Part shown: piece after piece, positions 15,601-17,797 of the stretch
Numbering within the stretch: position 1 is the first letter of the stretch
Layout: every line of letters begins with the position of its first letter
Source of the DNA: Myxococcales bacterium
GTDB taxonomy: Bacteria; Myxococcota; Myxococcia; Myxococcales; Anaeromyxobacteraceae
Direction of reading: 5' to 3'
Length of the DNA stretch: 28,583 nucleotides
NCBI GenBank assembly: GCA_038320275.1
Contig: JBBQEB010000030.1
Span: forward strand, 1 to 28,583
Notes under the pieces: model-generated
Database searches by the model: none
Seen by the model: the letters and a program-made list of their open reading frames with translations, nothing else
What the model was told of the DNA's origin: nothing
Translations under genes and position numbers: made by a program

Positions 15601-17797
15601 CGGCGCCTGCGCCGACGACCCCTGCGCCGGCGTCACCTGCCCCGTGGGCCAGTGCCTGAGGGGCCAGTGCTTCTCGTCGAAGAACCCGGACGGCGCGGGG
15701 AGCGTCGTCAAGGCGCAGGCCGATGCCAAGGGCTGCGGCTGCGGGACCGGCGGTTCGGCGCCGACCGCCCTTCTGCTCGTCCTCGCGCTCCTGCCCTTCT
15801 CCCGCCGCCGCCGGACCGCGGCCGCGGCGGTACCCGCCCACCCGCGCCGCGGAGGCCGCGGTGGCGGCGCGCTCCTCCTCCTCCTCGCGCTCGCGGCCGG
15901 ATTCGGCGGCTCGGCCTGCTCCGCTGAAAAGCATCCCGCCGCCCCCGACGGCGGCTGCACGTCCACCTGCGGCGGGAACTGCATCGACCTCGCCTTCGAT
16001 GCCAGGAACTGCGGGGCCTGCGGCGCGAGCTGCGGCTCGGGCGAGGCCTGCGTGGACTCGAAGTGCGGCCCGGCCTCGGCGGTGGCGCCCTTCATCGCCA
16101 AGGTGGATCCCTCGCCCGTGGCGGCCGGGACCGCGCCCGACCTGGCCTTGGGCGGGGACCGCTTCGCTGTGGGCGCAACGCTGCGCGTGGTCGGCCCCTC
16201 AGGCGTGACCGAGCTTCCCGCGCAGTTCGCCGACGCGAAGCACCTGTCCGTCCCGATGGACCTCACCAACGTCGCCCCCGGCACGCTCACGCTCCGCTTG
16301 CTCAATCCGGGGCGCGTGGTCTCGAACGCGTACGACCTCGCCGTCGTCGTGCCGACGCCGCACATCGACGCCCTGGCACCCACCTCGGCCGTCGCAGGCA
16401 CGAAGGTGCCGCTGCACGTCACCGGAGGGGGCTTCATGCCCGGGAGCACGTGCATCGCGCGCGTGCCGAGCCGGACCGATCCCACCGCCTTCGTGGAGAC
16501 CGGGCTTCCCACCACCCTCTCCGCCGGTGCGCTCGACTGCGCCTTCGACCTCGCCCTGGTGGCGCCCGGCGACTGCCAGGTGGTGATCCAGAATCCAGGG
16601 CTCGTCCGCTCCGCGCCGGCGACCTTCAGCGTCGCGAGCGCCACCCCCTCGCTCGCCGCGGATGGGCTCAGTCCATCCTCGGGGCGGCCGGGTGAGATCC
16701 TCCGGCTCCGCATAAATGGCAGCGGCTTCGACGCCGGCAGCGTCATCCGCGTGAACGGGGTCGCGCTCTCCACCACCTTCGTCGCCCCCACCCAGCTCTA
16801 CGCCGACATGGCGGTGGACGGCCGCTTTCCCACCGACGCGAGCTACCCGGTGGTGGTGGTGAACGCGGCGGCCACCTCCAATGACGTGCCCTTCACGGTG
16901 AACGCCGGTGCGCCGAGCGCCCTCTCGCTGACAGCCGCGCCGACCCAGCCGGTGTTTGGCACGACCGTTCAGCTCCATCTCACCGGCGGCGGCTTCGACG
17001 CGAGCTGCAGGCTGCAGGTCCAATCGCCGGGGAGCGGCTTCGCTGCCATCAACGGCGCGACCGCGCTCACCGGCAGCTCGGACCTCTCCGGACCGCACGC
17101 GCTCACCGCGGGCACCTTCGGCACCTGGAACGCCCGCGCTTCGTGCACCTCGGGGTGCGCGCCCGCCGCTCCCCCGTGCTTCACCTCGGCCTTTCCCTTC
17201 CAGGTGCTCACCAACGTGGCGGTGCTCTCCGGCCTGTCTCCGGCAGGCGGCGTCCAGGGCGGGAGCGTGACGCTGTCGGTCACCGGCTCCAACGTGCAGA
17301 CCGGTGCAAAGCTCCACCTCCTGGGGCCCAACACCGACCGTGACCTGACGACCACCGTCACGAACGGCAACACCCTCACAGCGCCCCTCTCTCTGGTGGG
17401 GCTCGACGCCGGCACCTACGCCGTCACGGCTGTGAATCCCGGCGCGGCGCCCTCCAACGGCGTGGGCTTCGCGGTGACGCCGGGGCAGCCCTCGATCAGC
17501 GGCGTGACGCCGGGCTCCCTCGCCCAGGGCGGAACGCAGATCGTGACGCTCACCGGGACGAACTTCGCGGCCGGGGTGACCGGCAGCACCGTCCACGCCC
17601 AGTCGGCGGCGATCCAGGGCGGCCTCGAGTTCGTGCTCCCGCAGGCGATCGTGAACGTCCCCAACGCCACCACCCTGCAGATCGCGCTCGACACGACCAC
17701 CATCGTGCCGGCGACCTACACAGTCTGGGTGGTGAACCCCGGCAGCCCCTCGCCTCAGGTGTCCAACAAGGACAAGACGTTCACGCTGTCCCCGTGA
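12674..17797 (+). CDS. 1707-aa Cys-rich cell-surface protein: signal peptide, unknown N-domain, MopE-like repeats, Cys-rich repeats, internal MYXO-CTERM, second lipoprotein signal, about six IPT/TIG-like domains
   Basis: Strong Shine-Dalgarno before ATG 12674. N-terminal hydrophobic signal ends at Cys32 (LLAPTC). Five E.CDG.DNDCNG..DD-type motifs. KGCGC..ALLLVLALLPFSRRRR at 15728-15814 and ALLLLLALAAGFGGSAC ending at 15919. Repeated P.I..L.P...G..F..G beta-rich modules run to the C-terminus. Confidence 0.88.
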   Translation: MHASRRIVDSGLARLAPIALAGLAVVLLAPTCGAGGGGLKAFSKGSIVIPMDACYQGDPGQAPPAGCPSVGSVAQDNGNVIRAYGLVYQLIRANVPVYWVIAQGKTSLIGEDFRIQYNAGLPVTKYDWAAGGKGNAMPPNANGHVVSYIGGPFVVDGSDFAAASAVMQGLKATFSSVNAHVSGVAFQANVAKSMSGGWDAGGNVPPPIALLDIHGPDKNSEGVIQGYLDRAGLGNADFPGAGGTTAPGQHGKIYDRLQVPDFLPDYSTSALGLNGYQVLWIPHWYGPGSWDPDSAHPITQARLDQVLSSIGGFVAAKHDAFAECASIGTLEGAFGGSSFGGFGTGNTGPTPSRVQTPSGVWVNEASLNATPLFGGGPSSFALPYLQLGGFNFSPLSGAIEGFRPNDGTAYQQGVVRLITDANPAAGKSAPNDYFTYRPATESHGTIVYLSGHTYSGTEGSFQIAGSRLVLNTLFNLGSACAATGTACSTGAFGECAAGTMQCDAVTGQPRCVPLHTPQPETCDGRDNDCNGIVDDLPAKACYDGPAGTKDVGVCHGGTSTCTSGAWTACLGEVVPTPEICDGLDNDCNGHVDDQVAPPNGQAACYSGPPSSLDPSGHPQGSCRAGTWTCSAASWSCQGEVLPRFEICEPSGSDENCNGVVDENCSCVPGQSQACYGGPSGTSGVGECRQGTHTCDPTGRWSACVGQVVPAPEACDGKDNDCNGSIDDGNVCDACKAGQTLPCYTGPAGTKGVGTCADGVHACVGGQWAAACTGSLLPGVELCDGKDNDCNGKVDDGAACPAKQACVNGACTFPTCGVESPCRDGYACQAGQCVAAPCGSGAVCATGMICRAGACVDPCAGVHCGAGSACSGGACVAGGCYATPCAAGQLCVNGACTADACANVSCAAGTFCRAGDCVQSCAFMGCAVGERCGMDGFCVADRCAGVSCGPGEVCTGGACGTDPCSGVRCAERQTCLDGACADDPCAGVTCPVGQCLRGQCFSSKNPDGAGSVVKAQADAKGCGCGTGGSAPTALLLVLALLPFSRRRRTAAAAVPAHPRRGGRGGGALLLLLALAAGFGGSACSAEKHPAAPDGGCTSTCGGNCIDLAFDARNCGACGASCGSGEACVDSKCGPASAVAPFIAKVDPSPVAAGTAPDLALGGDRFAVGATLRVVGPSGVTELPAQFADAKHLSVPMDLTNVAPGTLTLRLLNPGRVVSNAYDLAVVVPTPHIDALAPTSAVAGTKVPLHVTGGGFMPGSTCIARVPSRTDPTAFVETGLPTTLSAGALDCAFDLALVAPGDCQVVIQNPGLVRSAPATFSVASATPSLAADGLSPSSGRPGEILRLRINGSGFDAGSVIRVNGVALSTTFVAPTQLYADMAVDGRFPTDASYPVVVVNAAATSNDVPFTVNAGAPSALSLTAAPTQPVFGTTVQLHLTGGGFDASCRLQVQSPGSGFAAINGATALTGSSDLSGPHALTAGTFGTWNARASCTSGCAPAAPPCFTSAFPFQVLTNVAVLSGLSPAGGVQGGSVTLSVTGSNVQTGAKLHLLGPNTDRDLTTTVTNGNTLTAPLSLVGLDAGTYAVTAVNPGAAPSNGVGFAVTPGQPSISGVTPGSLAQGGTQIVTLTGTNFAAGVTGSTVHAQSAAIQGGLEFVLPQAIVNVPNATTLQIALDTTTIVPATYTVWVVNPGSPSPQVSNKDKTFTLSP
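14111..15058 (+). repeat. Five tandem 58-68 aa Cys-rich units ending in a MopE-like putative metal-binding motif
   Basis: Motifs start at 14231 (ETCDGRDNDCNGIVDD), 14405 (EICDGLDNDCNGHVDD), 14606 (EICEPSGSDENCNGVVDE), 14807 (EACDGKDNDCNGSIDD) and 15011 (ELCDGKDNDCNGKVDD). The spacers share CY.GP.GT.GVG.C..G...C..G.W..C.G...P. Confidence 0.9.
15068..15670 (+). repeat. Short Cys-rich stalk repeats of the form D.CAGV.C..G..C..G.C
   Basis: DPCAGVHC, DACANVSC, DRCAGVSC, DPCSGVRC and DPCAGVTC units with a period of about 19 aa. Confidence 0.85.

Follow-up and report, generated by a model that had tools for sequence, protein, structure and literature searches.

We analysed a window of 28,583 nucleotides (contig JBBQEB010000030.1 of assembly GCA_038320275.1, from a Myxococcales bacterium of the Anaeromyxobacteraceae), in which one gene encodes a 1707-residue precursor that carries an internal MYXO-CTERM sorting tag and, back to back with it, a lipoprotein-type signal. 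We think it probable that this single precursor is cut twice at the inner membrane, by the myxosortase MrtX and by the lipoprotein enzymes Lgt and LspA, to give two lipid-anchored proteins. The layout of the junction, its conservation, the adjacent mrtX gene and the presence of lgt, lspA and gspD in the genome are read from the DNA itself, and comparison between genomes shows the junction to be a real, conserved feature and a variant of a known sorting system, and makes cleavage likely. The features on which this proposal is built are the following.

12674..17797, + strand: whole precursor open reading frame, 1707 residues, with ATG at 12674 and a Shine-Dalgarno-like site at 12661-12668
15728..15814, + strand: internal MYXO-CTERM tag with GCGC motif, helix 1 and four Arg; TIGR03901 above cut-off
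15815..15868, + strand: basic loop of varying length among 49 junctions, probably cytoplasmic and probably the n-region of the second signal
15869..15919, + strand: second hydrophobic stretch and lipobox-like G-S-A-Cys1082, from the invariant Cys and the tally of the -1 residue
11653..12480, - strand: myxosortase gene mrtX, divergent and adjacent, exact start uncertain; NF040593, with EExxxR and HxxxN

The sequence GGAGGAGG directly 5' of the ATG at 12674 constitutes the Shine-Dalgarno-like site. The tag begins with K1019 at 15728, its R1044-R1047 end at 15814, and Cys1082 (15917-15919) is followed by 625 residues. With 660 residues after it in the primary product the tag is not C-terminal, unlike most MYXO-CTERM tags. 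Re-reading of the sequence confirmed the frame given in the initial annotation and its positions for the tag, loop, second hydrophobic stretch and Cys1082, and also its description of a Cys-rich motif and IPT/TIG-like domains after Cys1082, which correspond to an eight-cysteine module and to matches with NF058597 and PF01833. Its call of the tag itself is borne out by the hidden Markov model TIGR03901, which scores 23.8-25.8 bits (cut-off 20) at 15731-15814 in fragments around the junction, the better of two matches in the genome; the model is not reported for the tag when the whole 1707-residue protein is scanned. The second signal shows a basic n-region, a hydrophobic h-region and [G/A/S]-Cys, but lies inside the protein rather than at its N-terminus. 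Signals were assigned here from hydropathy and motif. The whole-protein model NF041328 (MXAN_6577-like) aligns its first positions to the second helix of the junction, with 35-42 bits over model positions 4-63 only, the whole-protein cut-off of 100 not being reached. NF058595 (lipo-invert, cut-off 37) has no match in the genome, and none for the junction of the window at expect values up to 1.

Several lines of evidence indicate that the fusion is genuine. As had been claimed, all three forward frames are open across 15815-15919, and codons 1021-1075 hold no in-frame ATG, GTG or TTG ahead of the second signal; the only two in-frame CTG of these codons fall within the first helix. The GC content at third codon positions stays between 0.80 and 1.0 throughout the junction. 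The initial annotation had named an indel or a miscalled stop as something that would refute its reading. None was seen: a contig from run X1, possibly the source sample and hence not an independent confirmation, shows neither differences nor gaps (0 each) over 15743-17000. An assembly artefact was rejected on this agreement and on the junction being in frame in 50 of the 51 family loci that span it. Nor were the homologues found to be two separate genes, the other outcome that would have spoken for an accident of this assembly. A profile drawn across the junction revealed no split orthologue among the 47 matching genomes of 301, and the partial matches considered as such were contig ends (L149-L151, L156 and L158), frameshifted loci (L147 and L152) or, in L148, another protein. 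When a free-standing C-terminal half was sought among proteins of 354-1129 residues, 21 proteins of 28-34% identity came up, mostly general IPT/TIG proteins; one of them, P0031, resembles a family fragment on a 2-kb contig. The junction family has no match in plasmids, and no RNA data set is listed as containing it, a negative that carries no information on expression.

Both halves occur in a single open frame in relatives from several families. The best named relatives belong to the Anaeromyxobacteraceae, among them Anaeromyxobacter oryzae Red232, with a complete genome (L040), and strain PSR-1 (L073). Within the class the junction-spanning profile matches at least 47 of 301 genomes, a minimum in view of the stricter filter applied. 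The matches comprise 41 of 73 genomes in the window's own family, every genome of two small families (3 of 3 and 1 of 1) and, in the largest family, 1 of 178, where it is a different protein. After removal of identical ones, 49 distinct junctions (the window plus 48) could be parsed in the order tag, helix, Arg cluster, loop, helix, Cys. L088 is a fiftieth intact junction, judged by eye, and loci cut off within the junction by the end of their contig were left out of the count. In L074 the junction is frameshifted and spread over three frames, and frameshifts occur elsewhere in the gene in L015, L016, L045 and L086. The distance from tag to Cys takes 19 different values (47-74 residues) among the 49 junctions, all in frame. 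By contrast, all 48 aligned rows, whose junctions are 29-51% identical to that of the window, keep G4 and the cysteines of both tag and lipobox unchanged. That both cysteines persist despite 19 loop lengths we count in favour of two cuts. The residue at -1 is Gly in 25 junctions, Ala in 22 and Ser in 2, so that [G/A/S]-Cys is present in 49 of 49, in the style of the lipoprotein-like signals of the genome itself (112 of 139 N-terminal candidates, a rough list that includes false positives), which also argues for two cuts. The uncharged run before the Cys is 11-22 residues long (median 17). The cysteines downstream of the lipobox are even in number in 38 of 45 intact homologues, which would therefore leave the lipobox Cys unpaired. 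In L037, a free-standing lipoprotein encoded by this genome, the N-terminus combines lipobox, tether and the same cysteine module and is 45% identical over 76 residues.

The putative processing enzymes are present. MrtX is encoded 5' of the precursor gene on the opposite strand (NF040593, 191.3 bits for a cut-off of 180) and contains the EExxxR and HxxxN motifs. An mrtX gene is adjacent in 37 of 48 relatives, divergent and upstream in 27 and directly downstream on the same strand in 10, these ten having a shorter form of the family; 7 of the 48 loci are too short to judge. The adjacency is thus kept through a rearrangement, which suggests that MrtX and the junction protein are enzyme and substrate. 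The genome further holds three Lgt-family and two LspA matches above cut-off, and GspD above cut-off. The genes for the LspA and Lgt matches form two lspA-lgt pairs plus a third Lgt-family gene, on G000 contigs C11, C299 and C127. One of the Lgt-family paralogues could be the MYXO-CTERM lipid transferase. In two relatives (L302 and L308) a second MYXO-CTERM gene with a terminal tag lies just downstream of the family gene, in convergent orientation.

The following course of events is proposed. The N-terminal signal would route residues ~33-1020 through Sec, and helix 1 would act as a stop-transfer sequence, with the Arg cluster remaining in the cytoplasm. Helix 2 would then re-initiate transfer, with the tag's Arg cluster and the loop as its n-region, and the last 625 residues would be exported. 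The tag Cys would be lipidated and MrtX would cut after it, as proposed for terminal tags, and the product of ~1000 residues would reach the surface via type II secretion. Lgt would modify Cys1082 and LspA would cut before it, leaving a 626-residue lipoprotein in the inner or outer membrane, while the residual hairpin of ~60 residues would be degraded. The initial annotation had proposed such a membrane hairpin and two products, and the comparative evidence supports this well; its notion of two surface proteins overstates the case. Lys is found at +2 or +3 of the lipoprotein in 36 of 49 junctions (Ser-Ala occupy +2/+3 in the window), and the C-terminal half may therefore be periplasmic rather than surface-exposed, perhaps retained at the inner membrane. 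In M. xanthus, 8 of 12 inner-membrane lipoproteins have Lys at +2, and FibA is not retained by Lys +2 (PMC3222651). The fixed one-to-one ratio that had also been put forward stands for synthesis only, which the fusion would couple between the halves.

Some observations weigh against processing by two enzymes. In all substrates for which MrtX cleavage is known so far, the tag is close to the C-terminus. The textbook lipobox is quoted with Leu at -3 (PMC3222651), whereas the window has Gly at this position, and among the 49 junctions the residue is Ala in 24, Gly in 15, Leu in 6, Thr in 3 and Ser in 1, i.e. Ala or Gly in 39. The 139 lipoprotein-like candidates of the genome have Leu in 61, Ala in 41 and Gly in 7, so that Ala is ordinary and Gly uncommon. 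The downstream cysteines are odd in number in 7 of 45 homologues, including the window (15). In 4 of 48 relatives, each with full flanks, mrtX is not adjacent, all of them outside the window's own family. Most of the 49 junctions belong to a single family, and counts from kin genomes are not independent trials. Finally, a weak tag-like motif in the frame starting at 25609 on the + strand of G000 contig C7 runs into a tail of ~200 residues; this tail has no second signal and a non-coding-like, shifted base composition, and probably results from a lost stop or a frameshift.

Among the alternatives, cleavage by MrtX alone survives best, although we consider it unlikely. The N-terminal half would be anchored at the surface and the C-terminal half would stay in the inner membrane on an uncut two-helix hairpin, with Cys1082 lipidated or not. 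This step has experimental precedent and was proposed for MXAN_5598 of M. xanthus (PMC11980579); the non-canonical -3 residue is in line with it, and the frequent Lys at +2/+3 fits an inner-membrane location anyway. An uncut anchor would have no need of an invariant [G/A/S]-Cys, nor is the short uncharged run before the Cys in its favour, and in unrelated proteins sites of the A-x-A type occupy the same slot. Two further alternatives appear improbable, both to about the same degree. The precursor could remain intact as an inner-membrane hairpin protein with both halves in the periplasm, its signals being relics of an old fusion, perhaps only lipidated. That no split orthologue was found could mean that the fusion is obligatory, and such fusions arise easily, as seen from the stop-separated, same-frame pairs L176, L178 and L181. 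Relic signals should decay, however, whereas both cysteines and the Arg cluster persist at this level of divergence; the adjacency of mrtX outlives a rearrangement, and tandem proteins of four units and OmpA-type downstream units argue for release. Alternatively, only LspA would cut, as may occur in 'lipo-invert' proteins, yielding a lipoprotein from the C-terminal half and leaving the N-terminal half on the hairpin or clinging to the C-terminal half. Matches of NF058595 in L284-L286 do show a helix-Arg-helix-lipobox hairpin devoid of a tag Cys, and 7 of 48 junctions match this model weakly, but the tag Cys of the family is invariant, mrtX is adjacent, TIGR03901 is found at expect values up to 1 in 43 of 48 junctions, and NF058595 finds nothing in this genome. 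The idea of two genes in disguise, with a miscalled stop or an internal start producing the lipoprotein separately, is largely refuted and very improbable: an in-frame GTG, TTG or ATG lies near the loop in 17 of 49 junctions and L074 is frameshifted, but 32 of 49 have no such codon, ATG occurs in one only and the positions are not conserved, on which grounds an internal start was rejected; the fusion is open in 49 loci besides that of L040, a cultured strain with a complete genome, and L074 resembles the noisy long-read loci L016, L045 and L086.

A profile of the junction alone finds the same module in unrelated proteins. Using TIGR03901 only, which avoids the bias of the junction profile, 161 of 198 matches in 10 myxobacterial genomes were examined. 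Of these, 141 end within 20 residues of the stop and 20 run on. Two of the run-on matches (L310 and L318) were dropped before counting, being below cut-off, devoid of Cys and in frames of low third-position GC. A second hydrophobic signal-like stretch (hydropathy of 2.0 or more over 11 residues, located within 50 residues) follows 18 of the 18 remaining internal tags, versus 11 of 136 controls in which terminal tags were read through their stop. Six of the 18 end in a lipobox, two of them from the window's family, and 12 in an A-x-A site resembling that of signal peptidase I, as judged by eye. The domains flanking internal tags vary widely (OmpA/TSP3, CARDB/Ig, amidase, Kelch, PKD, PF11617). 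Four units follow one another in P0011, every one placed after an A-E-A-C site like that of the protein's own N-terminal signal and closing with a tag, and P0013 has four tags as well. The downstream unit of several genes is an OmpA-domain protein, belonging to a type that has been described as outer-membrane barrels; this argues for release because such barrels must leave the inner membrane. L176, L178 and L181 contain neighbouring genes in which a stop comes directly behind the Arg cluster and the same frame goes on with a lipoprotein starting at Met, which indicates a route by which such fusions can arise. From these data we are inclined to believe, a little less firmly than in the double cleavage of the window's protein, that MYXO-CTERM plus signal peptide is a general myxobacterial polyprotein linker. 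About one tenth of the tags would be internal, a share that may be inflated by the choice of the 10 genomes for their junction-profile matches. The Arg cluster would double as the next n-region, and two to four envelope proteins per gene would be released by myxosortase acting with either signal peptidase I or signal peptidase II. The mrtX-adjacent gene of Anaeromyxobacteraceae would encode one such polyprotein, needing Lgt and LspA to act at a lipobox that lies 1000 residues within the precursor.

Two to four MYXO-CTERM tags in tandem occur in P0011, P0013, P0016, P0018, P0020, L210/L223, L269/L260 and L361/L370, with a new signal peptide after each internal tag. In P0018 the second signal is preceded by Met residues, and this protein may stem from a recent read-through. 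In the lipo-invert matches L284-L286 the helix, Arg cluster, helix and lipobox are followed by a tail of ~30-45 residues rich in Thr and Val, which might complete the preceding domain.

The remaining features of the precursor are these.

12674..12769, + strand: N-terminal export signal ending in A-P-T-C (Cys32), atypical and conserved; hydropathy and motif tally in homologues
12785..14104, + strand: N-terminal domain outside named families, with a predicted class I glutamine-amidotransferase/ThuA-like fold and conserved Cys324 and His452; predicted model
14105..15690, + strand: Cys-rich stalk of PF11617 repeats and other Cys repeats (Pfam), limits approximate
15950..16072, + strand: eight-cysteine module, partial MXAN_6577-like match below cut-off (NF041328), similar to L037
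16090..17794, + strand: Ig-like IPT/TIG (choice-of-anchor Z) repeats, start approximate; NF058597 and PF01833

The N-terminal signal corresponds to a hydrophobic stretch at residues 12-28. Its box reads A-P-T-C in 26, A-P-S-C in 8 and A-S-T-C in 6 of 51 distinct homologues. It could be a non-canonical lipobox, anchoring the N-terminal half at both ends; alternatively, Cys32 could be a disulfide partner, the equivalent Cys being internal in other proteins (L021 and L022). The N-terminal domain (residues 38-477) has no NCBIfam or Pfam match, no Foldseek match at expect values up to 0.001, and nothing usable was retrieved from the ESM Atlas (best score 0.85) or by sequence search of the PDB. In its predicted model (predicted local distance difference test, pLDDT, 69; predicted template modelling score, pTM, 0.74), residues ~167-440 best match the ThuA-like structure 4jqs (Z 12.9, root-mean-square deviation 3.8 over 206 residues), together with many class I glutamine amidotransferase entries. 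F284/E286/C287 and H415 are invariant in 18 of 18 rows of alignment A3 of this domain. Cys324 (13643-13645, + strand) sits at a strand-helix turn of the model that we take to resemble a nucleophile elbow, and is conserved with His452 (14027-14029, + strand) in distant homologues. We infer that the N-terminal half may be a surface cysteine hydrolase on a Cys-rich stalk. The domain with its Cys324/His452 pair is also present in records from Nitrospirota, Geobacteraceae and Polyangia, and possibly represents an unnamed family of secreted cysteine hydrolases. In L021 and L022, and also L030-L032, it has other architectures around it, being the C-terminus of open frames of ~710-730 residues with lipoprotein-like starts or the front of frames of 1500-2100 residues, whose C-termini may be PilY1-like. 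Residues 554-1048, which overlap the stalk, are 36% identical to an ordinary terminal-tag protein in L148. The C-terminal half consists of the eight-cysteine module and Ig-like repeats, with NF058597 matching four stretches at 122-136 bits (cut-off 30) in addition to PF01833.

Two other genes of the window are worth mentioning. The Hsp70 frame at 7467-10451 (- strand), read from its earliest possible start, has ~280 extra N-terminal residues; a small DnaJ-TPR gene comes after it. At 24044-27757 (- strand) a transporter of the CusA/CzcA type, from the resistance-nodulation-division (RND) superfamily, has 1237 residues, ~190 beyond the 1051-position model.

Annotation of bacterial genes assumes that each of them encodes one protein, and lipoprotein signals are sought only at the N-terminus. 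If our proposal is true, a class of myxobacterial envelope proteins, hidden lipoproteins included, is mis-annotated. LspA and signal peptidase I would act on internal signals, much as viral polyproteins are processed by the peptidase of their host. The precursor would unite, in a single substrate, a lipobox Cys with a lipidated Cys of the terminal type, and thereby has a bearing on which enzyme lipidates MYXO-CTERM proteins. E. coli, in which MrtX works, has both Lgt and LspA. The family is present in cultured Anaeromyxobacter strains (L040 and L073).

Internal MYXO-CTERM tags are already noted in print. They are called rare in PMC11980579, where MXAN_5598 is proposed to be a gene fusion with its N-terminal part processed; this protein is also listed in outer-membrane vesicle data (PMC4158809). 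The same work reports that MrtX cleavage is Cys-dependent, in E. coli as well, that tags with a C-terminal FLAG extension are cut too, and that open reading frames beside mrtX in Anaeromyxobacter carry a MYXO-CTERM motif and are divergently transcribed (PMC11980579). These are most likely the window's family. The accessible text of this source does not mention a second signal, a lipobox in this context, a polyprotein or an internal tag in Anaeromyxobacter. In the main text of the Haft preprint (10.1101/2023.06.07.544157), supplements aside, the words 'internal' and 'polyprotein' do not occur, and the accessible text of PMC6372800 describes Anaeromyxobacter as lacking traAB and mentions no natural fusion. 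No account of a second signal after the tag, or of this design, was found in the literature outside subscription papers, nor, among the papers listed, any relevant one on internal lipoboxes, fbcH, midcut/XrtH, lipo-invert, choice-of-anchor Z or bacterial polyproteins. What this locus adds is a myxosortase-adjacent family in cultured strains, a lipobox profile of 49 junctions and a controlled count of internal tags followed by a second signal.

Like the window's protein, MXAN_5598 has an internal MYXO-CTERM tag between two exported units, but the unit after the tag combines an outer-membrane barrel with OmpA (PMC11980579). The terminal MrtX substrates TraA and MXAN_4924 share with it the Cys motif, helix, Arg cluster, Cys-rich stalk and cognate MrtX (PMC11980579), and differ in that the window's tag lies 660 residues before the C-terminus and precedes a second export signal. 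The names of NCBIfam models NF058595 and NF033207 show that curators know of related hairpins. NF058595, 'lipo-invert putative C-terminal anchoring domain', similarly describes an internal helix, Arg cluster, helix and lipobox Cys, but lacks a Cys tag ahead of helix 1 and extends just ~30-45 residues beyond the Cys, and the window does not match this model. NF033207, 'midcut-by-XrtH protein', is alike by name alone, as a protein cut in its middle by a sorting protease; its enzyme is an exosortase, and its matches to the junctions are weak (12 of 48, best expect value 0.034). In the Bradyrhizobium fbcH cytochrome b-c1 precursor and in viral polyproteins that signal peptidase cuts, an internal signal peptide splits the precursor into two exported or membrane proteins. 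These systems work without a sortase-type tag or lipidation, whereas for the protein described here the prediction is that one hairpin serves as substrate for two different proteases.

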